DNA of 62,066 nucleotides, filler included, from Dugesia japonica (lineage: Eukaryota), in NCBI GenBank assembly GCA_001938525.1. It is 6 parts of 6 records of this genome, joined end to end, with 100 filler letters (N's around TTAATTAATTAA, not from the genome) between each part and the next. Parts side by side here need not be neighbours in the genome. Positions count along the whole stretch, not along the records: positions 1 to 9,882 come from MQRL01581257.1; positions 9,983 to 19,393 come from MQRL01498233.1; positions 19,494 to 31,264 come from MQRL01593616.1; positions 31,365 to 40,013 come from MQRL01226856.1; positions 40,114 to 50,177 come from MQRL01600001.1; positions 50,278 to 62,066 come from MQRL01542632.1. One strand, given 5' to 3'. The position numbers and the translations under genes were made by a program. This document shows positions 9,618 through 58,310 of the stretch, in pieces (position 1 is the first letter of the stretch; each line of letters begins with the position of its first letter). The notes under the pieces are model-generated. The model searched no databases, had not been told where the DNA came from, and was given only the letters and a program-made list of their open reading frames with translations.

Positions 9618-9813
9618 TCATTAAAATAAAAGCTTCTATCAAAATTTTTCGTTTTGATTTTGATAATAATTCAAATTTTCGACTTTGTCTTCGTCAGGAA
9701 TTGATTTTCTGACGATTTCTTTCTTCACAATTCCTGACGACGACAAAGTCGAGAATAAGAATTATTATCAAAAACAAAACAAAAAATTTGGATCGAAGCC
9801 TTTATTTTAATGA
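9618..9813. repeat. Inverted pair of the hammerhead-bearing ~100-bp repeat, followed by a (TTA)n tract
   Basis: Arms 9618-9703 and 9728-9813 are imperfect reverse complements; (TTA)n runs 9814-9882. Confidence 0.8.
9668..9703 (-). ncRNA. Minimal type I hammerhead ribozyme motif
   Basis: Minus strand reads CAATTC-CTGACGA-A-GAC-AAA-GTC-GAAA-ATTT-GAATT: core CUGANGA and GAAA, 3-bp stem II, stem I AATTC/GAATT. Confidence 0.65.
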
Positions 9814-9829
9814 TTATTATTATTATTAA

Positions 9830-9882
<53 letters not shown>

Positions 9883-9926
9883 NNNNNNNNNNNNNNNNNN
9901 NNNNNNNNNNNNNNNNNNNNNNNNNN

Positions 9927-9938
9927 TTAATTAATTAA
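9927..9938. other. Artificial contig-join linker TTAATTAATTAA (also 19438-19449, 31309-31320, 40058-40069, 50222-50233)
   Basis: Identical 12-mer with stops in all six frames, centred in N runs. Confidence 0.95.
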
Positions 9939-11036
9939 NNNNNNNNNNNNNNNNNNNNNNNNNNNNNNNNNNNNNNNNNNNNAAAATTTGAACCTTTTTT
10001 TACAAATAAATTTTGTTTTGTTTTGATCGAAGCCTTATCTTATTTTAATGAAACCAACATCCCTATTTTTTCTTGAAGAGCTTGGCAGGCTCTTGACCAA
10101 TTAGTTGTGGTGGCTAACTGTCCATGAAAGCTAGCTGCTATTTGCTCCTCTGCTCCAAAGGTTCGGCTTGGTCTAAGCTAGAACAGGTGCTGATTAGCCA
10201 CATTTTGTGGTGCATTCTTTTTCATGTCTAAAAGCATCAGATTAAATCGTGCTTAATCTGAATTTCTTTATTCGTTAATGAAATATGACGATCGTAAGTC
10301 TTAACGAAGATTTTGGTAGTTAATCTTGATCTGGCTAATTGTCAAAAGATTGTCGAAATTTGGGAATTTAGTAAGGTGATGAAAATAATTTCTTTAAATT
10401 TTATTATTGTAATTTCCAGAAATTCTAAAAGTTAATTAACGCTGCAATTGGCTGAATTGGATTGGAATTTTCCGGTAAGTAGTTTTTTCTGAATTTTGGT
10501 TGATTTTCACTTGAGTTTTGTTTAGATGGCAATCTGAGTTTGATGTGCAATATCAAGTCGAATGACACGATTTATTAGAGTAAGTTTTGTCTATTTTTGA
10601 GCCCTTTTTATAGTAAATTTTATTCAGATTTATTTGCCATTGGCTGATTTTGGTCGAAATTCACAATAATTCTCCAAAAATTGTTGTAAGCATATGGGAA
10701 TAAAGGTAATTTTTCTATATAATCAAATTGTTTCTTGATTAATTTATTTTGCTTTATANNNTATATGTTCCATTTCATTCACTCCTGGAGGAATTTATCC
10801 ATTATTTCGATTTTATTTGGTAATTTACTGACATTTTATTTTTTGTAATTTTTAATTGTTCGCATAAAGCTTTATTATTTCAGATTTTGTTTTGTTTTTT
10901 AATCTGAACTTTTGTGTTTTATAGCTTTTTAAATCATGATGAATTAGTTGAGTTTTGTCACAACATAATCATTTTGAGTTTTAATTAATTCTTTCAAAAG
11001 TTTTGTTCTTGTCAACATTTCTTCATTATCCATTTT

Positions 11037-11554
11037 TTAAGGTTTGAAATATAAACCATCACAGATAGTTTTTATTTGTACTCCATTTTTAAAATTTTTA
11101 GTAATCAACTTCAACTCTGAGTTTGGTAAACTATTTTTTAAATATTCATGAATTGCACTTCCTTGATAAGGTTTTAAGTAAAGTCCTGAACCAGTTTTAT
11201 TCGTTTCTAATTTATTTTCAAGTTCTTCTTTTTTAGAATTTGATTCAGAATTTAATTTTTCTTTTTTCTGAAATTCAACTAATTCAGTTTCTTTTTGTTT
11301 TTTAATTGCATCTCTGGAATTACTTACTGTACTAGCAATTCAGTAGCAATACCAGCTGTTGATGATAAACCAGCAATTATAGTTGGTATTGCAGCAAGGA
11401 AAGCGAATCCACCTTCATGTTCTTTACCTAATTTCTTTTTTATTTTTTCTTTAACTTTATTACCAATCCAATAGTTTTTACCATTAATTTTTACAGATTT
11501 ACTTTTATTTGAATTTATCCAATCAATTAATTCTTGTTCTGATATTGAAGACAT
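11037..11554 (-). pseudogene. Polinton pX/core-like virion protein (frameshifted)
   Basis: EGGFAFLAAIPTIIAGL (adenoviral pX-like GGF motif), then GSGLYLKPY and DGLYFKP in the shifted frame. Confidence 0.65.
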
Positions 11555-11760
11555 TTTCTTTTAAAAAATAATAAAAATATTCTTATCAAAATCCCAGAGG
11601 GTCCACTCCTAAAGGGTCGCATTCAAATTCTCTTCCACCTCTTTACCTCTTTCTTCTCTTCGAATCCCAAAGAGTCCCATAAGTTTTCTATAAAAACTTC
11701 AGCTTCTATATCTAAATAATAATAATATTTAATTTTCCAATGTAAATTAATATTATAATA

Positions 11761-12421
11761 CTATTCCATTTTACTAGAAAATATATTACTAAACAAATCA
11801 TAATAAACATTATCTGTATCTGTTTTATTTAATTTGAAAAATATAAAACAATTAGAATTATTTCTAATGGAGTTTTTATCTAAATGAAAATATGTTTGCG
11901 AAATATAAATTACATTACAATTTACATGTCTTCCTCTTGTAAAATAACTTTTCTGGATTTCTTGATCTTTTACATTTAAAACATCATCAAAAATTATTAA
12001 ATTCTTTTTTACCTTAAATAATTTATCACAAGGAATAATTTCATTTGGTTTATTACTTAGAATTATGTTTATTAATCTTGGTTTATTTAACAAGTACTTC
12101 TTTTCTATAAACAATTGGATAACTTGTAATGGAGTAATTAAAGAATCGGGAACTATTTTTTTATGTTCAAAACTAAAAATAATATCTTGTTTTGTTAATC
12201 CATTTTCAAAACCATGGTAAAGTAATTGTAATTCAAATTGATTTATAGTTGTAGAATAAATTATCAGTGTCATAATCTAAAAACTCTGGTGTTAATAACA
12301 TTTTCATTAACAAAACATTTTTACCTGATCCTGACGATCCAATTATTAATAATCTAAAATTAGATAGATAGATTTTATTATTAAATATGTTTTTATTTTT
12401 ATTCCAAATTAACGAAGCCAT
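11761..12421 (-). pseudogene. A32/FtsK-like DNA packaging ATPase (frameshift near 12270)
   Basis: Walker A IIGSSGSGKN, Walker B LIIFDD, RGRH motif, YISQ and IRNN across ORFs 12233..12421 and 11761..12273. Confidence 0.93.
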
Positions 12422-12789
12422 TTTTATTTAATAAAAAATTAGGATTTATTATTTTTCTCTTTTAAGTAATCATTAGTCAATTTACTAACACTCATATTTA
12501 ATATAGCTAAATTAGACATACCCATATTTTTAAAATTTACATTATTATAAAATTGAATTTCATCTAATTCTTCTTGAGACATTTATTCAGAAGTATTAGT
12601 AGTTAACCGCTTACAAAACGTTTTAGGTCTTTTGTCACTCTTCGTTTGCGTTAGCTCTTCTTTGTATTGTATTTGCTCTTCTTTATCATTTTCAATTGTT
12701 TCATTATTATTTTCAATAGAGTTTTTAGAGCTTTGTGTATTTCCAATAGTTATATTTTATTAATTTAAAATTTATAAAAATAACAATTT

Positions 12790-13293
12790 TTAATTATTAT
12801 AATCAGAAGTTATTTTATCATCTAAGAATTCATCTATTTCATCTTTTTGTGAAGTAGCATCCATAAAAGAATTACCTAGTTTATTGACAACTAGATTTAA
12901 TATACTTATACTATATAGATCCATATTATTAAAATTAAAATTTTTAAAATCATTATTCAAACCAGAAATTTCTTCATCTATTTCATTTTTTGTTTTATAA
13001 TCATAAGTATCAGCAGTTATCCACTTCCAAAATAATTCTGGCGGATTTCTTAGATTTATAAGCGCAAGTGATTTCTTACAATATTTATTTTTTTCTGATT
13101 CTTTTTTAAATTCTTGTTAAAATTCTTCTTTTAATTGTTCTTTAAATTGTTCTTTTAATTGTTCTTTTAATTGTTCTTTTAATTGTTCTTTTAATTCTTG
13201 TTTTAATTCTTGTTTAATTTTTTCTTTTAGAGTATTTTTTGATTCTTCTTTTAAAATACCTTTTAAAATGAAATCAAAAGAATTCTCATTCAT
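12790..13293 (-). pseudogene. Polinton orphan ORF with a (LKEQ)n coiled-coil repeat
   Basis: MNENSFDFILKG...KQELKQELKEQLKEQLKEQLKEQFKEQLKEEF*...; 12-bp tandem repeat at ~13126-13215; one in-frame TAA. Confidence 0.55.
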
Positions 13294-13314
13294 TTTAATT
13301 TATTAATTTTAAAT

Positions 13315-14155
13315 TTATAAAACAGTTTTCTGAAGTTCATTACTATAAAATCTACACAAAATCTTTTCATTCTCCAAATCATTAATACCATAAGTAAAAG
13401 GTTTTGTTTTATAAACTTGAGTTACTATAAATATTTCATTTGTCCATTTAGCTGTAAAACCTTTTTCAAATTTATATTTTTATTTAAATATTCTAACTCT
13501 ATCTCCAATTTTAAATTTTTGTTTCTCTTTTAAATCATCATTTTCATGATGAGACCCTTTGGGATTATGATCTTCGATTATTTCTTTTATTTTATCTTAA
13601 TTATCACTAGCATCTTTTGGAGTTGTTTTTATACTAAAATGAATTGTATTATTATAATCATTTACAATCTTTTGTAATAAATTATTATTCCATTTTTGAT
13701 TTCCAACTAATGTAAAGTATTTCCACATTTTATTTTTAGAGTTCCAATAAATCTTTCAGCAAAAACTGATTTACCCTCATTTTCTGTATGGTATAAATTA
13801 ATGTCATTTACTTTAAGAAATTTATCAAAGTATTTTGATCTAATCGCTGATTCCTAGTCAAATCAAATATAATTTGAAATTCTAACATTTTCTTCAAATA
13901 TATTTTCATAAGCTTCATTTAATGATTCCTGATTTTTATAATTCATTGGAACACACAAACAAAATCTGGAATGTAAATCAATACAAACTAAATATATCTA
14001 TATTTTTCTTTACTAATAGATTTTTAACCATGGCAATAATGTCACAACTCCAAGTATTATCTTTTTCTTTTATTATTACTTTTAGGAAATGTTTTAATCT
14101 TTATGTAATTCATTTACAAGTAAGGAGAAAACGGAGTTAGCTCCTTCATTTGCAT
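13315..14155 (-). pseudogene. Polinton retroviral-like (c-)integrase
   Basis: Manual translation with stops and frameshifts: WSCDI...CIDLHSRF...YHTENEGKSVFAERFIGTLK...YNNTIHFSIKTTP...FKIGDRVRI...FEKGFTAKWTNEIF...FYSNELQK. Confidence 0.93.
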
Positions 14156-14179
14156 TATTTTAATATTTGAGCTTACAAC

Positions 14180-14610
14180 AGCACCTAAAATAATTTAACC
14201 CTTCATTGCTAATTTTACTAAACCTCTTTATATTTATTCAGAAGTAGTTAGATTTTGGATATTATTTAAATCATGAATTAAATCTACGTCAGCTGAATGT
14301 CTATCTCTTAAATCTTCTGACTTGTAAGATAAATCATATTTTAAAGCTGCTTCATCAACTCTATTAATTGGTTCTTCTCCAAGTTTTGGATTATCTTCAG
14401 AATTTAATCTTAAATCTAATCTTCTTCCTGATCCAGTATAATTATGTTTGAACAAATGTCTTTCACCAGGACATTTTCCCCAAGTAAATGGTTTTAGAAT
14501 GTTACTTGTTAATTTAGAAGATTGAAGATCACCTCCTTTTTTAAAAAAAATTCGTAAATGTCTAGCTTTATTTTTTCTAGGTAATATTTTACAATTTTCA
14601 CAAATACATT
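14180..14610 (-). pseudogene. Parvovirus-type phospholipase A2 (PLA2x) virion protein
   Basis: HNYTGSG...PINRVDEAALKYDLSY...DRHSAD; the canonical GPG and HDxxY motifs are changed to GSG and YD. An N-terminal CxxC remnant is present. Confidence 0.85.
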
Positions 14611-15630
14611 TATTATCAATATTAAATTTACATTCATTTATAAGGTAATATGTATTGTTTAATTGTATTTGAATACTTTTTAGAGAATAGTATTTAGTTA
14701 CATCTACTGCTGGAGTTCCTTCTTTAACAGTTTTCGATATTCTTCGAATAAGTAAATTATTATTCTTTTGATAAGAAATTTCTGAATCTTTTACGCCTAT
14801 AAATATATATCTTGGTTTATAAGTTAAATGACTTAGTTTAATGGAATAATAATTTCCTGAATCTAATGTTGTTTTTGAGACAATTTTATTTAAAAAGGAA
14901 ACTTGAATAGATTTATTTGTATTATTTCTTTCTAAAAGATTAATTTCCATTTTTGGAAGTAATCTACATTCTGGAATACGTAATCCTAAAGTTGTTCATT
15001 TTAAAGTTGCTGTTTAATCTTTATCCCCATTAAATAATAATTTATCATTCATTTGCATATTACATGTAAATTTAATCATTATATTATATAGTAATCTATT
15101 ATAACATTGCATAAATCCAAATAAATTTTTTAATGGAAAATAACCTTCAAATTTCTTTTTTGAGTTATAAAGTTTATTTCTTTTATAAAACCTATATTTG
15201 CATCAAGACCTTCTACATCAACATCACCATTATTTGTGTCCGGTAACCAACCTGATAATTCTCCATAAATATTTTTATAAGTTGAACTAGTTGTTATTAA
15301 ATTTAAAATTGTTGATGAAATTCAAGGGTCATTAATTATTTCTACATCTGAAGATCCTAAAGTTAATCTCATTGTTTTAAATAAACTTGGAAACCAATTA
15401 TTTTCCAAAATTATTTTATCTCCATCTTTAACATCAATCTCTATTTTAAAATATAACATTGAATTACAAATGTCTAATGGATTTGAAGATTGTAAAGATT
15501 GAAAAGTTTTACCTCCAGAAGACATTAAATTATTAATTGAACCAGATGAAGGTGAAATTCTTAAAACATCATTTTTCATAAATAAATGTTGAAAATTAAT
15601 ATTGTAATCAAGATAAAGTGTTGTATTCAT
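14611..15630 (-). pseudogene. Polinton double jelly-roll major capsid protein (C-terminus deleted)
   Basis: LENNWFPSLFKTMRLTLG...GWLPDT...GF.KRN...FEGYFPLKNLFGF...YNRLLY...KPRYIFIG...IQLNNTYY, with several stops and frameshifts. Confidence 0.8.
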
Positions 15631-16068
15631 TTTCTTTAGTAATAAAATAATAAAAACTATTTGCATTTGCGGTTGCGTTTGCATTTCTAGTAATACAAAA
15701 TAACAAAAATCTATTTTTTATAATATTGATAATTATTCTTACATGTTAAATTTTTAATATTAGATTTATGAATGGGACCTTTTGGGATTTCTTCAATTTC
15801 CTCTTTTGAATAAACAACACCTAGAGGTTTAAATTTATTTATAAGACTTTAAATTTATTTTTACTAATTTTAATTTTTTTATTACAATAACCACAAAACC
15901 ATTCATAATTAATTTTGAATCTACATTCACCTAAATCTTAATGTTTATATAAATTAATTTTACCATCAAATTTTTCTTTACAAGTTTATTCTTTCATTTT
16001 TATTGTTTAAAAACTTTTATTATATTTTTAAAAATAACAAAAAGTCAAATAACCAAGACATCCACCTA

Positions 16069-16215
16069 AGTAGTGTATAAATGACGGCTTCCCGTTGGTA
16101 TTGCAATTTATTTTCATAATACAAAATTTTATATTGTTTTTTTTTCTAGGTATTAAACATGTAGGTGAAGGAAAAGGGCAGAATCTTGGAGGGAAGCCAT
16201 CATTTATACACTACT
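16069..16215. repeat. Polinton terminus with a 25-bp inverted repeat
   Basis: AGTAGTGTATAAATGACGGCTTCCC (16069-16093) matches the reverse complement of GGGAAGCCATCATTTATACACTACT (16191-16215) at 24/25. Confidence 0.9.
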
Positions 16216-18105
16216 AAAACTTATTTGAAAACTATATTAATTAATTGATATTATTAAAACACATATCACAATCCCCTTTCTTTTAAGGGTTGATTATATG
16301 TTCGGGACTTGCCTTCCTCTCTCTCGTTGGATATTGCCTTTTACATTATTCTGAGTTGTCTAGAAGAACAGGTTTTACATCACTGTTGTTAACTGACGAA
16401 AATGTGACACTAATGATTGATTCATCAATCGTTGCTTTTTATTTCTGAATTCTCCATTGAATCGTTTAACTTGGGGAAGATTTCGACGAATTACTTTCAT
16501 TCCATCATCTAATTCTAAGTTATTATTACTGAGAAATATGCTTACGATCCGCGGTCCTATATATCGTTTTGCAAGCAATCCTCTCTTTTCTGTTTTTACC
16601 ATTACCCAATCTCTAATCTTTAATATAGTATTCTGATTTTCTACTTAATTTCTTTTTGGAATCTGTTTTCTCTTTTCGGTTATTTTCTGTTATTTATTCC
16701 TAAATAAAATTTTGTAAGGTGAAACTCAAGTTTTTTGTTATTTGATGATCTCATAATTAATTCAACAAAAGGAATTGCTTAAACCCACGATTGGTTATGT
16801 GTCTTACAAGATGCATATAATTTCTCTTTTGCTGTTCTAAATACACATTCTATAAACCCATTACTCTGATGATAATATGGTGGTGAAAATGATTGATTTA
16901 TTTGTAACTTATTACACAATTCCTTCATTATTCCCGATTTAAATTATGTTCCGTTATCAGAATGAATTATCCTCGGAATCCCTAAGTACGCTATCTATCT
17001 TTCAAATATTAGTTCGGTAACTGTTTTTGCAGAAATATCCTTCAATAATATTAACGCTATATATCTAGAAAAAACATCGATGATTCCTAAAATATATGAA
17101 TATCTCTCGGAATTTGGTAACGGTCCCGTTAATTCCTATTAGGACTTTTGGAAACAATTTATCTACAATACTCATCCTAATTCTATTAGTTTTATTTCCT
17201 ATAGTTACATTTATAAAAGAATATTACCTAAATCTGGATATATGTCCGGATTTGTTACAGTTCCGGCACAGCAATGGTTTGTTAAAATTTCGAGCAATAT
17301 GACCTTTTCCATTGCAATTATAACATTTTATTTCTTGTTTGATATTTGAACTGGATACTTCAGACAATCTGTTTCATAGTTTCTTTCCAAATACTTTATA
17401 CGATCTTTATACTTTATTCTCCGTTTTAAGATTTCCATTTCTTGTCATTTTTCTGTGTTAACATCATTGATAATAATTCTCAATTTATCATTATTTTGAG
17501 TTTTATCTTCCTTTTTCATAAAATTAAAAGCTTCTTCCAGAGTGTTTGGTTTCATAATTTCCGTGGCTCTGACTGCAAAACAATTATTTACCCCTTTCAA
17601 AATTTTGATAGCGGAGTTTTCTCTCTATCAAATTCATCAAAATCTGGCATTTTCAGAATTCCAGCAACTCTGGTGGCAATTAGATACTGTCAAAAAGTCA
17701 TATCTTCCTGCTTTAAGGATAAAAGATTAATTATTAGAGTTATCTTGGTTCATTTGATCTGATACAATTCAATTAAATTTTCTTCAGCCATTCATAATTT
17801 GATTTAAACTCTGGAATTGATTGGAGTTCAAAAATTGCTTCTTCTTCTAAACTTCCAAAAACTTCTCTGAAAATTGTTTTGGATCACCAATTTTTTGTTC
17901 TTCAGCAAATTTTTCGAATTCGGTAATATGAATAGAAATATTTCATCCGATTGTAAATTTCTTGGAAAACATCTTTTTTTCATTTAACCAGTCGATAAGT
18001 TCCTCCAGGAATGATCGTGACGCCATGTTATTGATAAGAAATAAAGTTATTAAAATTTTATTTGAAAACTACACATAATAATTAATATTATTAAAACAAT
18101 TAGCA
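16216..18105 (-). mobile_element. Internally deleted Gypsy LTR retrotransposon (gag - protease remnant - integrase) with ~80-bp LTRs
   Basis: 5' LTR ~18105-18026 ends ACA and is followed by PBS TGGCGTCACGA (tRNA-Ser-like). Contains two CCHC-type knuckles (CYNCNGKGH, CRNCNKSGH), integrase motifs IIDVFSRY, IHSDNGT, PYYHQSNG and YIGP, then PPT AAAAGAAAGGGGAT and a 3' LTR starting TGTGA at 16270. Confidence 0.88.
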
Positions 18106-21018: not shown

Positions 21019-21197
21019 AACTGCAGAAGGCAATGATATGACAACGGGGCAAACATGAAAAGTAATAATTCCGGTGTCCAGCAAAGAATTCTTAACATCA
21101 ACCCACTAAAAATCTTTGTTCCTTGCAGTTGTCACAGTTTAAATCTTGTTGGCGATGCAGCAAAATCCATAGGTGCTGCTTCCTCGTTTTTTAGTTA
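21019..21197 (+). mobile_element. hAT transposase fragment (ZMYM1/DUF4371-like)
   Basis: CRRQ*YDNGANMKSNNSGVQQRILNINPLKIFVPCSCHSLNLV. Confidence 0.85.
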
Positions 21198-30704: not shown

Positions 30705-31165
30705 TCAGTCATTCTCAAATGTTTTAGCTTTTTTAATTTCTGATTTACTTTGTGAATCTTTACGTTTATGTTTTGAATCTTTCTGATGTTTATTATTGTC
30801 TGGACTTGGTTTTTTCTTCAAATATTCATTTGGTTTTATAAACAAATCTTCAGTTAATTCTTCGTTTTTCTGAGAAGCATAATGAATTATATCAGCTATT
30901 AAATCAAGTTTCATAATTCTTAAAGATTCCATCAAATCAAAAACCATTCTTGGTCTATTATCTGGAATTGTTGATTTCTTCCAATTCATAAGAACTTTAT
31001 ATGTTACTTCAGATAAAGTTTGATCAGCTGACAACGAATCGAAACCAATACCCGTTATTAGACTGTCCGACATTTGCAAATGAACAGCCAACGTCAGACC
31101 ATGTTCAACATATTTAGATAAAATTTGTAAACTGTGACCAGATAATACTTTGGGTTCTTTGTGCA
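30705..31165 (-). CDS. Last coding exon of a host death-domain-containing protein
   Basis: Intact ORF after a ctttaag acceptor; helical death-fold pattern GLTLAVHLQMSDSLITGI...VTYKVLMNWKK...LMESLRIMKLDLIADII and a basic tail. Upstream exons are lost at the contig end. Confidence 0.65.
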
Positions 31166-31200
31166 CTTAAAGACAATTCAAATATCAATAATATTAACAG

Positions 31201-31264
<64 letters not shown>

Positions 31265-31881
31265 NNNNNNNNNNNNNNNNNNNNNNNNNNNNNNNNNNNN
31301 NNNNNNNNTTAATTAATTAANNNNNNNNNNNNNNNNNNNNNNNNNNNNNNNNNNNNNNNNNNNNTTAAACGTTTATATTGTAATATGTTTGTTAAACACC
31401 ATGTCATGATTATTAGAGAACAAAGTATTCTAATATTAACATTAATATTGCACGAGGGGATTTAAGCGTGCTCTCATTAATCACTTAACTGTGTATACAT
31501 CTTGTGCGAAACTTGTTTGTTTTTAAAATTATAGTTCTTTCAGTTTTTTTNNNNNNNNNNNNNNNNNNNNNNNNNNNNNNNNNNNNNNNNNNNNNNNNNN
31601 NNNNNNNNNNTATCGAATAGATACTCGGATGATGAAATTTGAGAAAACAGTTTTCGTAAAACTTAAAATTTTAAAATTCTCAGCAGAATGATATTAAAAA
31701 TTTCATATTTGGAAAACAAAAATAATTTTTAAAAATTTGGGTAATTTAAACAAAAATGAGCTTTTCTGCCAATTTTACGAGGAAAGTGAAATTTTCGAGT
31801 TATTACGTAATATATGATATAATAAAACTTTTAATATAAACGTTTTTATCAAAATTTTGGTTTTTTATTGATATTGGATAA

Positions 31882-31917
31882 CAATTCGATATTTCGACAT
31901 TGTCTTCGTCAGGAATT
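31882..31917 (-). ncRNA. Minimal type I hammerhead ribozyme motif (best-preserved copy)
   Basis: Minus strand reads AATTC-CTGACGA-A-GAC-AAT-GTC-GAAA-TA-TC-GAATT(G), giving a predicted AUC cleavage triplet. Confidence 0.72.
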
Positions 31918-32458
31918 AACTTATTCAGGAATTGAATTTTTTTATTTATTATAAATTATAGTATAAATTATAATTATAATATTATAATTATATTTACATT
32001 AATTATTATTATTATAATATTTATATTAATATTATAATTATAAATTATATTAAAATTATTATAATATAAATTATAAATTATATATTATAAAAAGAATTCT
32101 ATAAAACGATCAATGATTATGTCCAACAATTATTCTCGCAATAATTTCAATTTTAAAATAATAAAACTTATTTTGTAATCCCTGAATTAGTACGTAACTG
32201 ATACGTAACTTTGATGTAACCATATTGAATAACGTAACTTTGTGTTAATGCTATAATCCGCACACATTGATTACATAACTTAGTGTATACTTAAGACCCA
32301 CTGTATATGATTGCGTTCTGAGTGGGGGTGGACATGTACGTCAGTATCTATCTACTCAAATTAAACTATTCGAACAAGGATACAGACGATTTGAAGTTAG
32401 TTAATATATAAAAATCATAAAATAACGAAAATTGAAATATTAAAATTCACTGATTACT

Positions 32459-35400
32459 TGACTAATTAGCAAATTCGCTTCCGCTAATTCTTCTTGTACT
32501 TTTAAAAGTTTCATTTCGCTAAAATCAAAATTATTGTTCTGCTGATCAATTTCTCCGGCTAAAATAAATACCATTCAAATGACAATTTTAACAAGTATTA
32601 GTAGTATACATTCAACAATTTCACTGTAATCCTTATAAAGAGATAAAACTAGTGACGATTCTGACATCGTTATGGACCGCACAGATTTCATTTTAAGCAA
32701 TTCTAATCGTAAACTATTGATTTCTGACTGATTTATATCCAATTTAATACGATCAAAATTTAATGAAACTGAACTCTGTATTTTCGACAATGCAGATTCT
32801 ACTAGATTTCGTACATTTGCTTCATTTACAGTCTTATGTAGACAGTTATTTTAATTATTAATGATAAAATCCTACTTCAAAAGATTTATCCTGAAGAATT
32901 TGTATTTTTGAATCTTTTAGCAAAGATTCATCTTTTAAATTTTGAATGATTTCCTCAAATTTCCTTTGAGATGATTCCATAATACCTAATTTTTCTTTTA
33001 GGTGTTGTACTTCAATGCTCAAATTTCTTCTCAATCCCATGGCTTTAATGAATCTTTTTTTCCATATTGAATCAACATTATCTAAAAAACTCAATGATTT
33101 ATTGAAAATTTGTAATATTTCTTCACCATCATTTATTTGCATGTTAGGAAATAATCCTCTACTCTGTAGTTGTTCTCGCAAATCCAATACTTCTTTTTGT
33201 AAAGACTCTAAATCTCCAATTACATTAATATTAACTTTCACTTTATTTCTAATCATTTTCACATGATTAGCAAATTGTAAGGTCGATAATGTATCATTGG
33301 TAAATTTTATGTCAGGATGTATACATGCAATGAGAACTGTTTTCGAATTACCCCCTATTGAATCCTATTAAAATTAATTAGTAAAGTGACAATTTCTATT
33401 AATGTTTTAACTTTTAATAAATGCGTCAATTTAGATTCTCGATAACGAATGTATCTTTCTTTTCCATTGGCAATATCAACATGGGCACTTATAACTTGAG
33501 AAAGAACATGTAATGATTTATTTATAGATCCGGCTTCCTGGAATTTAAAAGTTAAAATTCTCAATATTTGTATTTGTAAACTCTTAATCTGATGTCATCT
33601 GCTTTAGAGTCTTTTTGTCGTTCACTGCCAGCTAGATCAACTAAATGCAGAACACTTTTCCGTATGTTTTCAACTTTTCCTTCTTTGACACATGTTTCTA
33701 GACTTATTGAAAATACAGAATGACTTCTAGAACTTTTAAGATTCATTTCCGTACTAGCAACATGGCGATTTGATAAGCCAATGTTTAAAATCTAAATTTG
33801 TATTAAACAATTTTAACTATTGTGTTTTACATTCAATGCATCTCGAGTATTTTCAATAATTTTTTCAGTTAATTGATCAACATAAACACCTTGAACAAGA
33901 TTAACCTTCAAATAGACACGCTTATTTTTTGGATCTAGCAGATCAAAAATTTGCTCATTGTATATTTCAACGAAAGAACATTTAACCAAATATTCAACAT
34001 TCTGAAAATAAAAAAAGAACTTTGGAATTTCTAAATAGCTGGAATTAGAATATCATTTTGATAAATAAATATTTAACCACCAACGTTCAAAAAATTAAAT
34101 TTTCATAAATATAATAAATAAATAACTGTTAAATTATCCACTCATTCAATAATTTAATAGAGAGGTCAAATTTCTTAAACTTTTAAATTACTCGAATAGT
34201 CAAGCACTCTAAAATAAAAATGATTGAGTACTTGAGTACTCAAAAGCCAACCAAAAAGCCAAAATTTTATCAAGTAAAACCGCAAACCCACCACCCGAAA
34301 AAATCAACAATATTAGAGTACTTAGTTTTTTCCTCTTCCTACAAATTTGAACGTTAATTACTTATTGATTGATACGAGAACAGTCAAAAATAAATGAAAA
34401 TATAGACAGGAATAAAAACAAGAATAAGTACATAATAATACATTTGGCAACAATTAAAAATAATTTGAAAACTGGGACTTTTGGGCGTCCCGAAAGGTTC
34501 GTTTGGAATACTGGGATACGATGTTTATAATCGGTGACAATTACAATTAATATAGACACCTGGTAACCCTAAACAAGTAACTGGAACTGACCTCTCTAAT
34601 AATATAATTTTGAATTTCGTATAATATTTAAGAAAAATGAATTTTCACTGCGATAAAAAATTTATAGAAAGGACAGCCTTGTGTTGTTGTCATTAATATC
34701 ATTTTAGAAAAGCATGGAAAAACTAAATGAAAAATTGATTTCAAATCGTGATTTATTTCTAATTCAAATTTATCATTGATCTGAAAGGTTACATAAAAAA
34801 TTGTATAAATTATGTAACCTTTCAGATCAATGATAAATTTGAATTAGAAATAAATCACGATTTGAAATCAGTTTTTCATTTAGTTTTTTCCATAAAAAAT
34901 TGTCGTACCGATTAACAAATAAATGGGAATGGAAAATTTCCACAGAGCAAACAATGAAGTGAAACTATAACATTTGTTAACTGGTGAGCAACATAGATTC
35001 AATGATAGCGTTTTTACTACTTGAAGCTAAATCAATTAATTTAGACAATAATATATTAAAAACTCGAAATTCTAATGTTGGACTAGTTTATCATCGTTTT
35101 TTAATTCAAGTGAAATATTAGTGGGTTGTTGAATAATTTCGTAGTGTTTAAAAATATCTTTATATACAAAATACAGACAATCTATAAGAAATCAATATAT
35201 GAAATAAAAAATATATTCTTCAGATTATGCAGCTTTTAAATGGAGTTTCTATTCAACAAAAACGAGCATTATCGACATATTGTTTTATGAATATAATAGC
35301 GGCCAATATGCGCCGAAGCATTTCAGAATATCAACGTCGTTTATGGAGATAATGCTATAGCCAAATTAACTGCTCGAAAATGGTATGTAAAATTCAAAAA

Positions 35401-48700: not shown

Positions 48701-50279
48701 TTAAGATAGACAAAGTAAAATTTCAACAAGAAAAATAAAAATTTCAAAATGGAAAATAAATTTCCAATAGAGATAATTAAATTAAATCTTTTAACTTCGA
48801 AAATCAAACTTTCACCATGGAAAATGAATTTTCAACATCGAAAATAAAAGTTTTAGCAATGAAAGTAAAAACTTTAACATGGAAAATAAATTTAAATATG
48901 GACAAAAATTAAAACAGTNGAAAGAAAACTATAAGACTCGAAATTAAAATTATTTTACAAATGACTTTATAAAAATTATAAGCTTTCAATTGTTACGCTT
49001 TAAAATTATAAAAATTCAAATATTGATATTCTTTGGGGAGAAAATTAAGATATGTATATTGCTCCGGAAAATTTAAGTTATTTTTTTGTTCGGAAGAGAA
49101 TACGAATGTCCCACAATAAAGATTTCTGTATCTAACAGTAGGAAAAATCAACTCCTTTATACGCTCAAAGTGCGTAAATCGTTAAGTCTATAAGCTTGTC
49201 GTCTATCAGTCTGTATTTATTTGGTTATCTATGAGCAGGTGATTTTTTCCTCAAAGACTCAGATTGTACAGAACGGCTGCAAATGGTCAATGATAAACTT
49301 ATATAGAGCTTAATTCAAAAATTATAATGCACAACCACACGAGATATATCAGAGATGTTAAAAACAAGTCAAGAATCTTTGAAATTCATTTNNNNNNNNN
49401 NNNNNNNNNNNNNNNNNNNNNNNNNNNNNNNNNNNNNNNNNAAATTTATATCACTCAAAATAAAATTACAAAAGTATAAATAAAATTAAGATAGACAAAG
49501 TAAAATTTCAACAAGGAAATTAAAAATTTCAAAATGGAAAATAAATTTCCAATAGAGATAATTAAATTAAATCTTTTAACTTGGAAAATCAAACTTTCAC
49601 CATGGAAAATGAATTTTCAACATCAAAAATAAAAGTTTCAGCAATGAAAGTAAAAACTTTAACATGGAAAATAAATTTAAATATGGACAAAAAATTAAAA
49701 CAGTCGAAAGAAAACTATAAGACTCGAAATTAAAATTATTTTACAAATGACTTTATAAAAATTATAAGCTTTCAATTGTTACGCTTTAAAATTATAAAAA
49801 TTCAAATATTGATATTCTTTGGGGAGAAAATTAAGATATGTATATTGCTCCGGAAAATTTAAGTTATTTTTTTGTTCGGAAGAGAATACGAATGTCCCAC
49901 AATAAAGATTTCTGTATCTAACAGTAGGAAAAATCAACTCCTTTATACGCTCAAAGTGCGTAAATCGTTAAGTCTATAAGCTTGTCGTCTATCAGTCTGT
50001 ATTTATTTGGTTATCTATGAGCAGGTGATTTTTTCCTCAAAGACTCAGATTGTACAGAACGGCTGCAAATGGTCAATGATAAACTTATATAGAGCTTAAT
50101 TCAAAAATTATAATGCACAACCACACGAGATATATCAGAGATGTTAAAAACAAGTCAAGAATCTTTGAAATTCATTTNNNNNNNNNNNNNNNNNNNNNNN
50201 NNNNNNNNNNNNNNNNNNNNNTTAATTAATTAANNNNNNNNNNNNNNNNNNNNNNNNNNNNNNNNNNNNNNNNNNNNTC

Positions 50280-51799
50280 ATAATTGTCTTTTGTGTATTA
50301 TCTTACATAGATATTTCAATTGTATTAATTAGATGATAATTAAAATATTACTAAAATTACATAGAACTCATTTCATTTTTTAAATAATTACATTGAAGTC
50401 GTGAAATATTTAATAAATTACATAGAAGTCTAGAAAAAAAAATTTATAAATTACAGAAATCAGTGAAATATTTTTAAAATTACAAAAAATTCCCACCAAA
50501 AAATAATTTCTTTGTCTAAATTGTATCAAAACAATAATTTTTAATTTAATTAGAACGTAATCGATTATGTAATCAAAGTAATTAAATTTTAAAACGCGAT
50601 TTTATTTCGAAATGCAAAAACGAATATAGAAATGCATTTGTTAAGCAGTTTAAATAAAGACACATTGATATGTCACTGGATAATATTTTTAAATACAAAA
50701 AATAATAATAAAAATAATAATTTTCCGAAAAAAAAAATTTCAAATAAACTAAAATTACCAAAAAAAAATTTTAAATAAAAAAAAATCCATAACTTTGGTT
50801 TGTGATTAATTGGTAAATTCAAAAAAAATGTTTTTAATGTAACCAGATATTTTGTTTTAGTATTGTATCAAATTAAAAAAAAATTTTAAAAACTATTAAA
50901 ATGAAAAAAAATTTTGTATGTAGCCAGATATTTTATTTTCTTTAGTATGTTATCAAATTAAAAAATGTGATAAATTTAAAAAAAATATGACAAAAAAATA
51001 TAAAGAAAAAATTTAAAAAATAAAAATTTAAAAAAAAACAATTTACAAAAAAATTTTTAAAAATTTTTAAAAAAATAAAAAATGTTAATAAAAAACAAAA
51101 AAACAATTATTTGATTAAAAACAAAAAAATTTCAAAAAAAAAATTTTATTTAAATAAAAACAAATACAATTATTAAAAAAAAAATAAAACAATAATTAAA
51201 ACAAAAAAAATTATATATTAAAACAAAAATTTTTTTTTCTAAGTTGTGTTTCCGTGAGGGGGGGGTTAATATTTAAGCAATATGTTTCCGTGAGGCGAGC
51301 AGGGTGTGGGTTAGAGAAGGGGTAATGATGTCTTTGTTCTGACTTTAAAAAAATTTCAAAAAAAGTATGACTCATAAAAAAATTTCAAAATGGCGGAAAG
51401 TAGAGGAGGAGTAAGGGGCTATGGTGTCTTTGTTCTTTATTTTCAAATAAAAGTATGAAATTAAAAAAATTAAAGTATAAAAAAAAAATTTTAAAAAAAA
51501 ATTTGATTGAAAAATAATTTATTTAAACAAAAATAAAATTTATTAAAATAAAATTTTTTTTTAAAAGTTATGTGTTTCCGTGAGGAGTGGTATGGTTTTT
51601 GTTCTGAAAAAAAGTATTTCTCATCACCAGAAAGTGGGCATGGGAAAAAATAAAAAGTGGGCGGAGCAAAAGATAAAAGTGGACGTGTCAAAAAAATGTG
51701 GGTGGAGTCCAAAAGTTGGCGGGGCTATGTATCATGGGGGAGGGAAGGGGTACACCCCCATCGAGGGGCCCCGGTTTGGTGCGCTCAAATCTACCTACT
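50280..51799. mobile_element. Probable Polinton-type terminal region: A-rich tract, short repeats, GC-rich tip ending CTACCTACT
   Basis: TGTTTCCGTGAGG three times (~51248, 51283, 51573), AAAATGGCGG, GC boxes. Terminus reverse complement AGTAGGTAGATTTGAGCGCAC resembles AGTAGGTAGATACTGGCGCAC at 47614. Confidence 0.5.
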
Positions 51800-52950
51800 T
51801 TCAATATCGCTATCTTGGGGTTGATTTTAATCATGAGCCCTTTCAAACTTCTACAAAAATGTTTGATAAAGCTGTTAGGGATCTTGAGAAAATTTCTAAC
51901 TCAGTTATGTATCCTTAGCAGAAAATCCATGCGTATCGAACCTCTTCATTCTAGGTTTACGTTTGCGTACAAGAAATTTAACATTCCGTTAGAAAAGTTG
52001 GATTGCAGTATGTATAATGAAAATGGGATTCTTCTGCGGGAGACGAATATTCCATGCAATCTCTAGTTCAAAATGTTTTCTTCCTCAGACAAGATTGTAC
52101 TGGATGTGGCTAGCAATGATCTTGTCCATGTTGCGACTAAGCATCTCAAGCATTTTGAATTCTGTTTCATAGATGATGCATTGGATTTGCTCTCCGTAGA
52201 TACCACCAACTCATATCTCATGCGTTGATGGTCTAAGTTTCATGATGCTATTTCTCATCTTTATAGATTGTATTACATACAAATTAAGTTAAAACAGAAC
52301 GAACTTGAAATTTGTACACAGATAATTGATTGTATCTTGGAAGGAAATTATTTGATTTCCTTCAAGGACCGGAGAGGTTTGACCACGATGCTTTATATTA
52401 TTTTGAGTTGGGCTCATACGAGAAAGTAAAGCAGTCTGTTTAAGGCAAAAATGCTGTCAACTGCAATGATGTGCTTGAGCTACTTGCCAGCTTTGTTAGA
52501 TCCAACACCATCTATAAGGTCATTGTTGATAAGATTTGTTAATTTTTCAACATAAATGATTGCATCGATCTTCAGCTGATAAATAGCGGGGCTAAACGTA
52601 TTATCCTATTGGATGTGAAGATTCTATGACATTTCCAATAATATTAAACTAGTCAGAGATAATAATATCGTCAAACACACACCACTTAAGGAAGATATCT
52701 TGAAAACGTGTCTGGATGTAAAATTTTCCTTGAAACAATCTCAGTGGGGTGCCTGGGATCTTAGTGTGTAGAAAACAAACCTGCTTTAAAACAGGTGGGT
52801 TTCAAGGCTAGTAGAATTAGGAAATTTGCTTTGATATTGATAAGAAAATGGATAGCCTGGTTAGCGAAAATTGGCACTCCCATAACGGATAGTCTGATAT
52901 AATAGCAATTCTGACCAAGAATGTAGAATTGTTTATGGCAGTGAGTCTAT
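51800..52950 (+). mobile_element. Decayed R2/NeSL-like non-LTR retrotransposon 3' part (RT tail plus restriction-like endonuclease)
   Basis: YRYLGV, MYP*QKIHAYRT, DLQLINSGAKRIILLDVKI (PD-D/ExK-like) and GAWD. Confidence 0.6.
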
Positions 52951-54114
52951 AATAGAAGAGTTGAAATAGGGTCCAAAATTTCAGGTGTTTTCTGAGTTTT
53001 CTTTATTTCCTAATTTTTTCCTTTTCTTTTTGTTTTTTTATGTTTTCTTACAGCATCTCCGCTGGCCGAACACGGACTTGATTATTCTTAGGGAGGGTTT
53101 TTTGGTCTGAAAAATGACTTTTGACTATCTTGGCATATTAATATGTCCTATGTTGATTCCTATGATTGTTTTTTTATTTTACACTTAGTGTTTCGGATTT
53201 CGTCAGTCTTATATAACGTTTGACGATTTAAGATAATTATATTCAGAATCAACAAAATATTCTTTATCCAATAGATACTTTTTTGTTAAAATTTGAGTTA
53301 CATTTTATTTTTTTCAAAATTTTATCATTAGAGATTGTAATTATCCATGAGAGCAACCCATACTAAGTACTTGTTTTTAATTTATTTCGCCAATGATAAT
53401 GTTTGACGTCTTTTATCTTTATTAATAATGATACTTGCAAACTTTATAATCACTACATGGTCCAGTGGTAATAGCAGTTCTTTTACAGTTCATCAATGGT
53501 GGTTTGATTCCTATAATTGTCGACTTATTTTTCACTTTGTTTTTCGATTTAAATTTTTTTCTATAACGTTTGACTATTTCTAACCATGTTTTCCTTACTC
53601 ACGTCAAATTCTCTATCAAATAGATACTTTGATGTTCAAATTCGAATTACTCTTTCCAAAATTCATAATTTCCTCAGGGACTCTCAAAATGAAGTACATG
53701 GTTTTTTCTATATAACGTTTTATCTATCAGATTTACATATTTGGAATCAAGAAAAGATTTTCTATCCAATTAATACATTAATCTTTACATTTGAGATACT
53801 TTTTCAATTTTCGAAAAAAGTTACCATATCCGGAGTACAGCTGAATATCTTCATTATGAAGCATTGCTACCGAGACGATATTTTAACTTTAAGTAGTCAC
53901 TTTTTCTTCCTAAGTAAAATATTACCAAATTTGAAACCATACGAGTTATGTACGCTGATAAAATTGAGCACCAAAATTCAAAATTTGCAATTTTCTACAC
54001 AAAACCTTATTTATTTCATCTCGGATAAACTTTGGCGATTTTATGTTTATATATCTGGAATCAACAGAAAACTTTCTATCTTATGGACGTCGTTATTTTA
54101 TTATTTTATCGATT

Positions 54115-56635
54115 CTATTACTGATATTTTATCACCAAAAGTGTTCTGCGGAGAAAATGATATTGAGAAATTTATCAAAAGATGGGAATTGTATTTTGAA
54201 GCTAAAAATATCACTCATGCGAAACAACAGGAGAGATTAGTCTCTTGTTTGCTAGATGAAGATTTGTTGGAAGAATATGCAAAGACTTGAAAAAAGTTGA
54301 AGGTTTTCAGGCTCGTTTACGTAAAGCATTTGGCAAAAAGAAAGATGTTATCAAAGATTTTCAAATTTTGATTAACTACAGGCGTTGATATGAAGAGATT
54401 TAGGTTTATTTTAAAAATGTAAAAGATTTAGGGGAAAGATTATTTACAAATAAAGATTTTTATAAGGAAGAAATGATTGCAAAGATTTTAATATTTTGTT
54501 CAGATAACAAAAAAGTTGAAGAAAAAGAGACGTTGCGGAAACGAGAGAATATAGAAGAAATTGAAGAAACAATGACGTTAGTAGATCGAGTAGAGAAAAA
54601 CANNNNNNNNNNNNNNNNNNNNNNNNNNNNNNNNNNNNNNNNNNNNNNNNNNCGAGAGAATATAGAAGAAATTGAAGAAACAATGACGTTAGTAGATCGA
54701 GTAGAGAAAAACAGAGATCGAGTTGACGCAGATAAACGTTACAAATTGAAATTATCAGAAACCGGTAATTTATATAGTGAATAGACATGTAGAACAAAGA
54801 AAGGAAAAACAAAATATCGAATGTTGGTTATGTCATAAGATCGGTCATACTAAAGCAAATTGTCCGACAAAAAAGTGGTAGAGTGCTGGAGTTGTCATAA
54901 AACAGGAAATATAAGTCGAGATTGTCCAAATAAAAAACCAACAAAATGTTTTGGTTGTGGAAAGGTTGGCCTATATAAGAAGGTTATGTCAAGAAGTAAG
55001 GTGGAAACGATGTAGTAATGGTTGACATAGAGGAGAAGAGTGCTACACAAATTTGAAAATGAAAAGAACAAGTGAGAAATTGATGACTGCAGAAAGATCA
55101 AGAAACCGATATAATCGAGTACATGCGATTGAAGATGAAGATTTCAGTACAAACGATGGATATGAGGAAGTATATGAAAGTTATTCCGAAAGGCAGTACC
55201 CAAAAGCCGGGGCTTCACCAGTAGAGGAGTTGGTTGTAGCCATCCATTGTTAAATGAAGTGAGTAATTATCCTCAGGAAGTCGAAAAGTAGGATGATATA
55301 GGAAAAGTTACAGAAAAAGTATACAGGTTCTTAAAGAGTGAAAATTTTGTGGACGATAGAAAAGTAGAATGGCTTGGAAAAATTGAAGCAGAAAAGAAAA
55401 CAAATATTTAGTAACATAAATTGCAAGGCAGAGTAAATGTTATGGTATCAAATTAAGTAAATAAAGTCAAATGTTTATAATATACATGAGCTCAAATAAC
55501 GTTATGAGTTTAAGTGGTTTTAATAAATTACGTGAACTACATTTAGAAATGAGTGATGGAACTGGAGTTAGAAATGAGTTAGAACTGGAGTTTGCAAAGA
55601 GGTTCCTTTCTTAGTTGCAGAAAAAGTGACACCAGATTTAATAAGAGTAGTAGATATGCAGAGGATTTTTGAATACCAGCTTATGAGAAAGGTTTATAGC
55701 AAAACGGATGAAAAATTCAAAAATTACATTTGCAATATTGAAGCAAAATTTGGAAGACAAATAATATAATGAGAGCGATTGACAAGAGCCTTAAATACTT
55801 GGAAGATTAAAGAGGGCCAACGGTTATTGAAAATAATTAAAGTAAAGAAGATGTTTTCATGGCAAAAAAATAGGATGAAGGACGCGCACATCTGACAAGA
55901 CATAAAATAAAATAAGTAGTAAACCAATCAATGTAAAACGGTATTGGCAACTAATGTGCTTAGAATCTAAAATTAAAGAAGCTATTCAAAACCTTTTCGA
56001 GATTAATTTTGTCCAAAAATGCAACTCTCTATGAAATACCCCACTGATTTGTGTTTGGAAAAGGAAAATAAAGATATAAGAATATGTTTGGATATCAAAC
56101 AATGAAATGAAGTTACGAAGAGGCAAGCTTTTCTGATGGCTAATGTTGATGAAATGCTGGACAAGTTAGATCGAGCCAAATATTTCAGTTCAATAGATTT
56201 AGGAAATGCGTACTATCAAGAAAAGCTCGAAGAAAAATCTCAAGAAAAAATGACGTTTTCAACGAAAAATGGACAAAATTGTTTTAATTAATCCAAAAAA
56301 GTGTCAGTTTCTTCAAAGCAAAATTAAATTACACATAATTACCATGGATGGTGTCAATTTAAAAAAGAACCAATAAGAACATTTGTCAAACCTAACTGTG
56401 TGAAGTTACAAAGTTTTCTGGAAATTTGTACTTACTACAGGAAGTTGATAGAAAACTGCGCAAGAAAGTCAAAGATATTAGAGCAGTTGTTTAGCGGATC
56501 AAGCAACAAGAACTTAGAATGGACAGATGAAATAAAAGATACTTTTGAGGGTCTGAAGAAAACGCTAATGACTGCACCTAAATTGTGTTTTCCGGACATA
56601 AACAAAAAATCCAGATCCCAGTTTTGATACCATTG
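54115..56635 (+). mobile_element. Gypsy retrotransposon (gag, protease, partial RT), same family as 42161-43860
   Basis: PKVFCGENDIEKFIKRWELYF (homologous to ~42205 onward), CWLCHKIGHTKANC, CWSCHKTGNISRDC, YFSSIDLGNAYYQ and LMTAPKLCFPD. Confidence 0.9.
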
Positions 56636-56663
56636 GAGCAATATTCTTTTTTTTTTCAAAAGT

Positions 56664-56700
56664 CAATTCCTGATGAAGACAAGGTCGAAATATCAAATTG
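56664..56700 (+). ncRNA. Minimal type I hammerhead ribozyme motif
   Basis: CAATTC-CTGATGA-A-GAC-AAG-GTC-GAAA-TA-TC-AAATTG. Confidence 0.68.
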
Positions 56701-57719
56701 TTATCCAATATCAATAAAAAAATTTTGATCAAAGCTTTTATATTAAACAAACAATCTCCATCAAATTCTGCAACCAAAAAAATTTTTAAAACATTTTCGG
56801 ATTCCCATAAAAAATTCATTTAAAAAATTTCAAAATTTTCATATTATTTTTACAACATATTATCACTTTCATATTGCTCACTAGGATTCCATAAAAATCC
56901 CATAAAGAATTTTTAAAAAACTTGAAAATTTAAACAAACTCAGATTTTCAAATAAATTTCCTTAAAACTCAACCCAATCTGACAAGCTCGAGTAAATTAT
57001 TTCTCAAATTATCCAAAAATTACCCAAACTGACCATTTTCTAATAAAAATTTGACCGATTTTACTCTTTTTTAATCAAATTGACCACAAAGAGGAAATAT
57101 TTGACCAAATTATTCAAAACTAACTCAAATTGACTATTCGCAGAAAACATTCAACCCAACTACCCAAAAATTACCAATCCCGACGAAAACTTCAACCAAA
57201 TCACCAAAATTAACCATTCACATAGAAATAATTTATGAAATCACCCAAAAATTACAAAAATTGACCAATCCCGAGGAAATAATCGATCAATTTCACCTAA
57301 GCAAACCAAAAATGACCTTAGTCGACCTCACTGAAAAGATTCCATGCAAAAACCACCTTTAATTATTTAACCTCACCGAATAATTCCCCAACCAAAATGC
57401 TTGAAAAAATTTGTTACCACTTAAAAAACCTTAAAAATATTACTGCTCACTACAAGTTACGTTAAAATAGTTTGGAGATAAATTTAATTTTTAAATAGCC
57501 TTTATAATATTTTAATCAATAATTTTATGGAGAATTTCAAATAAATTTAAAATTGTAAAAATAATAGCAACAATAATAATTTGTTAAATAAACAAATTAT
57601 TATTGTTATTGTTTAAAAAGCCTAAACAATTTTCCCAACTAAATACACAAGGAAATTTAAAAACAGTAACTTAATATTAATTAATATGATGCAATTTTTA
57701 AATTGCCAACTAAATGCAT

Positions 57720-58084
57720 TAGGATTATGGTTTGTTCTTGACCGCAACTACTCAAGACAAATAGTTTGTGGTCCCAAATGCATTTGTGATGGTAGAAATA
57801 TATGTAATAAAAAATATCACTTATAAAATAACATCCACCTTATGTAAAGAAATATATATAAGAGAATCATGCAGAAAAATGCGTACAAGAATTCAGGAAC
57901 AAAGAAAGTGAAGTCTTCCAACACTTTTAACATAATTAATATTTTACCGGATAAACATCATATTACATGTAAAACATTAAGAACAGGCTACCTTTCTACA
58001 CTTCACATGAAAAAACATGAACAAATATTGATCAAAGAGGATAAACCTATAATCAATGTGATTTATGATAATTATAATAATTAA
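57720..58084 (+). mobile_element. Penelope-like element GIY-YIG endonuclease remnant
   Basis: NITYKITSTLCKEIYIRESCRKMRTRIQEQ (degenerate GIY-YIG) and EQILIKEDKPIIN. Hammerhead-type repeats follow at 58190-58310. Confidence 0.7.
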
Positions 58085-58189
58085 AATAAATATCAATAAA
58101 TTAAAATAAAATAATAAAAAATTTAATATAAAAAAAATTTTTTTATTTAATATTTATATTAATATTTATCCATTGATAGTTTTTAGAAT

Positions 58190-58310
58190 TCATTTAAAAT
58201 TAAAGCTTCGATCAAAAATATTTTTTATTGATTTTTTGAGATTTATTCGAAATTTCGACTTTGTTTTTGTCAGGAATTGACTTCGAAAGTCAATTCCTGA
58301 CGAAAACAAT
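58190..58310. repeat. Head-to-head degenerate copies of the hammerhead repeat
   Basis: GTCAGGAATTGACTTCGAAAGTCAATTCCTGAC hairpin; minus copy 58244-58279, truncated plus copy 58291-58310. Confidence 0.7.

Follow-up and report, generated by a model that had tools for sequence, protein, structure and literature searches.

A dispersed repeat family with a minimal hammerhead motif in Dugesia japonica, probably derived from the ends of Penelope-like elements

Introduction

Minimal hammerhead ribozymes (min-HHRs) in the pseudo-LTRs (pLTRs) of metazoan Penelope-like elements (PLEs) were described by Cervera and De la Pena (2014; PMC4209133), who define them by the absence of helix III and list as further traits a bulge after A9, a G10.1-C11.1 pair and a palindrome at positions 15.2-16.2. 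According to the same source the copies are mostly single and dispersed, with opposite-strand pairs, and no cleavage was seen for the monomer and low cleavage for dimers. PLE insertions have been reported to carry head-to-head inverted pLTRs, junction palindromes and a tail of 30-40 nt at one end (Arkhipova, 2013, PMC3846280; Craig, 2021, PMC8557442), and this tail was traced by Frangieh (2024; PMC11167929) to two internal start sites of reverse transcription (RT). For the Anolis element PAc the latter paper places the two RT starts ~40 nt apart and downstream of the hammerhead, and reports nicking of both strands with a nuclease preference for ATT. The PAc hammerhead overlaps the ORF start, is protein-dependent and is dispensable for insertion in vitro, and no RNA-seq ends were reported at its cut site (PMC11167929).

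Here we analyse a repeat family in a 62,066-nt stretch of the D. japonica genome (the window), which consists of six contigs joined by N-spacers and has a GC content of 27%. Elsewhere the window contains remnants of mariner and Gypsy elements, a Polinton-like gene set and a kinesin gene interrupted by introns.

Materials and Methods

The window was searched for the hammerhead motif using a pattern with at most 3 mismatches and a min-HHR descriptor demanding a helix II of at least 3 bp, a palindromic tetramer and an NUH triplet. For comparison a relaxed pattern was used, which returned at least 121 metagenome loci. Eleven public sequencing runs share 5-10% of the words of positions 54653-62066; four runs were compared over 56560-58460 at 80% likeness, their contigs representing related, not identical, DNA, and 40 of the 258 letter rows of these runs were listed.

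Results

Inventory of copies

Six copies of the repeat were located on contigs 1, 4 and 6 (Table 1), where a preliminary description of this DNA had placed them. That description was also accurate as to the loop II variants (AAA, AAT and AAG) and the tetramers (ATAT in C and D, AATT in A); its consensus of the hammerhead region holds in full for A and, apart from a T at the first C, for C, and fails for B, D, E and F. Additions to it are the fragments at 10021-10052 and 32091-32136, the optional tail, carried by A and E, and the head stutters at 9710-9716 and 31925-31939. A profile search of the window detected no more full copies and only the weak 3'-end fragment at 10021-10052. The full copies agree with each other at 62-79 of 87 shared positions and form two groups, A/B (76/87) and C/D (79/87). 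Copy D sits after a Gypsy RT-RNase H fragment.

Table 1. Repeat copies, fragments and neighbouring features in the window, with the extents given by nhmmer.
Feature	Position	Strand	nhmmer extent	Description
Copy A	9600..9708	-	9614-9714 (-)	intact min-HHR; A-rich body; partial tail
Copy A hammerhead				helix I 5 bp; helix II GAC-AAA-GTC; tetramer AATT; predicted cut 3' of 9673
A/B head-to-head junction	9709..9727	.		holds short core stutter at 9710-9716
Copy B	9728..9813	+	9722-9814 (+)	core broken (GAGA; U16.1 lost); untailed; terminal (ATT)n run
3'-end family fragment	10021..10052	+		without hammerhead; weak nhmmer match, E 0.05
Copy C	31830..31922	-	31825-31929 (-)	intact min-HHR; untailed; head stutter 31925-31939
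Copy C hammerhead				helix I 6 bp including G-U; tetramer ATAT; predicted cut 3' of 31888
99% AT stretch	31940..32090	.		separates head of C from opposite-strand tail
Tail-only fragment	32091..32136	+		opposite to C; resembles the tail of A (87% over 23 nt)
Copy D	56658..56747	+	56655-56750 (+)	core and helix II intact; G1.1>A; untailed
GIY-YIG endonuclease end, Penelope-like	57613..58084	+		5'-truncated, frameshifted; four-Cys linker; CxxC between two core motifs
99% AT stretch	58085..58165	.		after endonuclease stop codon
Copy E	58170..58283	-	58187-58288 (-)	core broken (G8>A, G10.1>A); no palindromic tetramer; tailed
Copy F	58286..58310	+	from 58282 (+), truncated	25-nt head only, ends after loop II; G10.1>A common to E

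Fit to the hammerhead motif and conservation

The motif pattern was matched five times in the window and never in 100 shuffles, and the min-HHR descriptor was matched in the window by A and C only. When the window was shuffled in 1-kb blocks, the descriptor with a helix I of at least 4 bp was found in 0 of 600 shuffled windows, and with a helix I of at least 2 bp in 6 of 600. The CUGANGA and GAAA boxes and the NUH triplet stand intact at min-HHR spacing in three of the six copies (A, C and D), are broken in B and E and are cut off in F. A single unpaired base lies between A9 and 10.1 in all six copies, G10.1-C11.1 with a paired helix II of 3 bp is present in four of the six, and the 15.2-16.2 palindrome without loop 3 is present in four of the five full copies, with two pair types. 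Helix I measures 5-6 bp in A, B and C; in D the closing pair is lost, G1.1>A breaking the pair at the predicted cut site, and at the corresponding position, 56695, most contig depth in all four related runs is a G that closes helix I.

All four traits given by Cervera and De la Pena (2014; PMC4209133) in addition to the descriptor or as part of the consensus are found here (a family of copies, a bulged base following A9, the G10.1-C11.1 pair and the 15.2-16.2 palindrome), and the anatomy supports the preliminary description in its proposal of a type I minimal hammerhead like those of Penelope pLTRs. To the same published min-HHRs the family is further alike in its type I topology, CUGANGA with one bulged base, GAAA, a short helix I, AU-rich flanks and mostly single dispersed copies with opposite-strand pairs, and it differs from them in being known here without a parent ORF (PMC4209133). 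The four letters after GAAA in C and D (UAUC) also occur in the Nematostella and Latimeria rows of Fig. S3 of that paper, and those in A (AUUU) in the Crassostrea row (PMC4209133). The earlier claim that helix III requires a partner is likewise supported; the "unusually short stem III" of that description is not, a loop-less palindromic tetramer being the defining trait of animal PLE min-HHRs in that source (PMC4209133).

Instead, the unusual feature is helix II, which takes up 9 nt, loop included (3 bp and a 3-nt loop). Judged by eye, the shortest helix II plus loop among the 56 rows of Fig. S3 of Cervera and De la Pena (2014; PMC4209133) has 11 nt (3 bp with a 5-nt loop in C. briggsae, 4 bp with a 3-nt loop in two others), many rows having a helix II of 5-8 bp, and the 34 rows of File S2 of Craig (2021; PMC8557442) have at least 10 nt. 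As predicted from the sequence, helix II would thus be notably compact, shorter than all in these two published lists. Engineered hammerheads with one G-C pair in helix II do cleave (PMC544870), and a literature search on the shortest natural hammerheads gave nothing on this planarian repeat family.

Among the five full copies, differences from the column majority number 3/55 in the core and 3/80 in the stems, as against 10/40 at the free positions and 38/245 in the downstream body. The preferential conservation of the core, which the preliminary description had made part of its refutation test, is therefore seen (core and stems together 6/135), with Fisher p values of 0.0004 and 0.001 for the contrasts that are generous, the copies being non-independent and the body AT-rich. 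When pairs were counted, 77% of the cells were paired, compared to 11-47% with slid partners. One compensatory change was observed, in helix III, the pair being A-U in A/B and U-A in C/D. Covariation among the six copies showed no excess over letter shuffles (41/500 and 99/500 shuffles reached the observed values), and the copies are not independent in this respect because they form two subfamilies. The Rfam search returned no hammerhead family at E-values up to 5; its best match lay on the A/B hairpin, to a miRNA model whose gathering score it missed by far.

Ends, tails and pairs

Inverted arms in head-to-head order are formed by A/B, by E/F and probably by C with the fragment at 32091-32136. 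The copies end at one of two fixed points, namely a short end or a tail of up to ~40 nt (present on A and E, absent from B, C and D); the tail-only fragment has ~45 nt and agrees by eye with the consensus of loose ends before 58180 in the related runs, among the loose ends listed (24 of 3289). The 99% AT stretch at 31940-32090 may be either a target site or a low-complexity 3' UTR. The heads of E and F make up a near-perfect palindrome (-33 kcal/mol). Six candidate units were free of target-site duplications longer than 5 nt, B entering a microsatellite at the contig end; in EN+ PLEs such duplications vary and frequently escape recognition. Tandem direct units were absent from the 62-kb window.

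This arrangement fits PLE insertion anatomy: in the A/B pair only A has a tail, B terminating in (ATT)n; E carries a tail and joins F in a palindrome; and the untailed C faces a tail fragment. With the inverted, 5'-truncated PLE insertions described in the sources cited above it shares head-to-head arms, a junction palindrome or stutter, an optional tail and an AT-rich or (ATT)n flank; it differs from them in that both arms are only pLTR-sized, the 5' edge is apparently fixed before helix I and no target-site duplication was found here.

In the related runs a shared tail follows past the short 3' end, with an agreement of 0.61-0.64. Head-to-head joints from 58283 to 56658 were seen in 5 contigs each of runs X1 and X2, among the joints listed (15 of 302). 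In X1 and X2 the summed depth was 4-8 x 10^5 on D, peaked at 6-8 x 10^5 over the endonuclease remnant and was 21-43 right of 58352. D and the remnant are thus highly repeated in the related runs, summed depth not being equal to copy number.

A comparison family in metagenomes

The listed metagenome loci are for the most part members of a single, unrelated min-HHR family, in which helix II has 6 bp. Among the matches listed there were 75 distinct loci with a profile match, 23 of them with at least two copies; 22 of the 24 adjacent pairs listed were head-to-head, two were direct and none was tail-to-tail, and exactly one arm was tailed in all 20 readable head-to-head pairs listed. At 26 of the 28 listed loci with an endonuclease match the ORF ends, by eye, at most ~100 nt upstream of a copy on the same strand; some of the loci are one site present in several assemblies. 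The comparison family is an analogy, not a homologue, and shows the same architecture with a visible parent.

The GIY-YIG remnant beside E and F

PLE endonuclease pieces were recognised in three frames at 57765-58081. An atlas search ranked a GIY-YIG cluster first for the remnant (0.95, 200 shared features, Pfam on 12% of the members), that with its C-terminal piece being a lead only, and the cysteine pattern follows the header of Fig. S2 in Craig (2021; PMC8557442). Protein searches with the remnant pieces gave no matches, Pfam gave only sub-threshold DUF matches, and tblastn of three comparison-locus endonucleases against the remnant reached only E 1.6. The linker has a CxC-x5-C string, as have the Hydra-clade PLEs of Craig (2021); by sequence it appears to fit the Nematis/Neptune pattern in that source better than the Hydra clade, a comparison that stops short of a clade assignment.

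The preliminary description had linked one pair of copies to this remnant. The proximity stands, the remnant ending ~90-100 nt from E; the geometry of a parent does not, as the remnant (+) faces E (-) tail-to-tail. The tail of E points at the stop codon of the remnant, an arrangement absent from the comparison family, and F, in sense to the remnant and 200 nt further on, is truncated and paired with E. Because of the tail-to-tail geometry, the most fitting reading of the E/F pair is an independent insertion, next to the AT-rich end of the remnant or within it; no joint bridging remnant and repeat was seen among the joints listed (15 of 302). The chances that the remnant belongs to the parent family are about balanced; it is similarly abundant in the related runs, and 99% AT stretches lie after its stop codon and before C. 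A reading of E as an antisense hammerhead relative to the endonuclease ORF was rejected: the ORF-side end of E is the optional tail, i.e., an insertion end, and the rows of File S2 in Craig (2021; PMC8557442) are all sense, bar one inverted copy.

Discussion

Origin of the copies

The copies are probably decaying 3'-terminal pLTR ends of a PLE with an endonuclease (EN+), inserted as very short, 5'-truncated pieces. By analogy with PAc, the PLE protein would nick both strands of AT-rich DNA, and reverse transcription, starting downstream of the hammerhead at two sites separated by ~40 nt, would in a single event leave two inverted arms of unequal length. The preliminary description had proposed a separate non-autonomous element; this is not favoured here, the copies being explained by truncated pLTR insertions. 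No full-length parent element was seen in the 62-kb window.

An observation that random truncation does not predict is the 5' edge, apparently fixed in five of the six copies. We regard as unlikely, if worth stating, a more far-reaching account: the hammerhead, with 25 nt between C3 and the cut site and a 3-bp, triloop-closed helix II, would be the smallest natural example in the set compared and would cleave as a dimer with the help of protein, and the very numerous solo copies with their fixed 5' edge would be cDNAs begun by internal priming close to the start of the PLE mRNA. If true, the 5' edge would map the start of the element RNA, and the family would be a genome-wide natural record of internal priming.

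The same edge bears on the possibility of a SINE-like solo pLTR, a unit of ~90-130 nt that would itself be the RNA template, whether as a transcript of its own or as a copy made by internal priming at the PLE mRNA 5' end, and that would be mobilised in trans by PLE protein. Such a unit would account for a head boundary lying 3-6 nt before helix I in five of the six copies and for the lack of conserved sequence before the head in the related runs, where agreement is only 0.44-0.48 in 34-66 contigs (counts not depth-weighted), as compared to the tail; moreover, in Adineta pLTR sequences are reported to suffice for mobilisation in trans (Arkhipova, 2013, PMC3846280). However, a 3' UTR of nearly pure AT would make the agreement just as low, and stretches of this kind lie behind the endonuclease stop codon and ahead of C; the same pairs also arise by ordinary truncation of coding elements in the comparison family. 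We consider the solo unit improbable.

Inverted pairs and a long hairpin, together with the possibility of reading D and E as the ends of a 1.6-kb unit, would also be expected of a MITE terminal inverted repeat or a foldback DNA element that resembles a hammerhead by chance. The arms are unequal, however, with a tail on one side; D and E are identical at only 66/87 positions, no target-site duplication was found, the descriptor was absent from the 600 shuffled windows, and core and stems are preferentially conserved. The family is thus not a MITE repeat in our judgement, as the preliminary description had also held, and the chance of this origin is very small.

Still less credence can be given to a fragment of a protein-coding exon, in which the core would be a short acidic peptide frame with several variable sites at third codon positions. 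The GAY and AAR/AAT variation does fall on third positions of one frame, and the hammerhead-ORF overlap of PAc shows that coding and ribozyme can coexist (PMC11167929), but the frame closes within ~25 codons in all five full copies, and the helix I of 5-6 bp at exact spacing and the palindromic tetramer are left unexplained. A non-LTR retrozyme, i.e., tandem hammerhead repeats yielding circular RNAs, has a negligible chance: retrozymes are likewise type I, non-coding and PLE-related (Cervera, 2020, PMC7229834; Li, 2026, bioRxiv 10.64898/2026.07.22.740005), with PLE pLTRs as their proposed origin, but they are tandem units of 150-450 bp with mostly canonical hammerheads, whereas the units here are dispersed or inverted and ~90-130 bp long, with ends off the cut site, a minimal motif and no tandem direct order in the window.

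Where the hammerhead might act

Under the truncated-pLTR reading, the hammerhead would act, if at all, in the RNA of the parent element, where two tandem pLTRs or two RNAs would pair via the palindromic tetramer with the strands of helix I swapped, and the predicted cut would follow the NUH triplet, AUC or UUU. The double-hammerhead energies are 0.0, -2.8 and +0.4 kcal/mol, compared to -10.6, -19.4 and -15.9 kcal/mol for the best dimers. Because the hammerhead fold lies 11-17 kcal/mol above the best dimer (nearest-neighbour energies, without tertiary terms), protein help is probably needed for folding, as in PAc.

The dispersed copies are better seen as passengers, with two of the six intact and no usable partner in cis. 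In the A/B transcript a hairpin of about -95 kcal/mol buries the motif, and inverted pairs therefore cannot supply the dimer. With four of the six copies damaged, inverted partners folding into a hairpin and no direct tandem in the window, the genomic stubs are, by the modelled folds, unlikely to be active.

Novelty and implications

The pattern of the family itself had no matches in viral contigs and none in metagenome contigs; its one match in a prokaryote genome was rejected as chance, lying inside an open reading frame without the 3' strand of helix I, and the 19 viral matches of the relaxed pattern were rejected as having no consistent helix II. A literature search on planarian Penelope hammerheads likewise gave nothing on this family. 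The kind is already known, having been described in 2014, and this family is absent from the collections and papers searched.

The finding adds one more family to a known kind, and its main use is in the repeat annotation of this genome. The 3-bp, triloop-closed helix II may serve as a natural test of the minimum size of a genomic hammerhead, and the paired stubs tailed on one side agree with the two-start-site priming shown in vitro for one PLE, a model that a genome rich in such stubs could serve to test.

Open reading frames and inverted repeats in the window

The features lying outside the hammerhead repeats are listed by position below. In the cluster of broken ORFs on the minus strand, the co-occurrence of a Pox_A32-type ATPase and a phospholipase A2-like domain suggests that this part of the sequence is a decayed insertion of Polinton/adintovirus-like type. 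The intronless ORF with the TBP domain, surrounded by short unassigned ORFs, may be part of a mobile or virus-like element.

The C/A-rich region separates one hammerhead repeat copy (copy D) from the 5'-truncated endonuclease remnant of a Penelope-like element (PLE); in the related sequencing runs this region is repeated and has many internal joints. The palindrome is located directly ahead of the endonuclease fragment that has high depth in those runs and starts at position 57613.

Features of the window, with Pfam E-values
Position	Strand	Feature	E-value
232-1422	-	Two neighbouring ORFs (pieces of 263 and 133 aa)	no significant match in Pfam search
6662-8543		Short ORFs without assignment
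7779-8156	-	Intronless ORF, TBP domain	7e-14
11040-15717	-	Clustered broken ORFs: Pox_A32-type packaging ATPase domain; phospholipase A2-like domain	1.5e-6; 0.0012
30708-31166	-	ORF, weak death-domain match	0.012
34718-34888		Near-perfect hairpin (arms 79 nt, 99% complementary; spacer 13 nt) within kinesin gene region
56750-57400		C/A-rich, degenerate units of 100-130 nt
57569-57607		Palindrome, 39 nt
60181-61419		Inverted repeats (80 nt each, 1079 nt apart) flanking mariner-like coding remnants

The metagenome comparison family

Among the matches listed, about 70 of the comparison loci (L001-L121) represent an unnamed animal PLE family on metagenome contigs, whose minimal hammerhead ribozymes have a helix II of 6 bp. 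At one locus (L057:887-2472) an endonuclease of a PLE type other than the one usual for this family is enclosed by two direct hammerhead repeats, an arrangement for which nested insertion and cross-mobilisation are both candidate readings. The head-to-head pairs carry a tail of 30-35 nt that is strictly one-sided. Its loci form a clean set of natural data on which to examine the two-start-site model, in which two reverse transcription starts give inverted arms with a tail on one of them.
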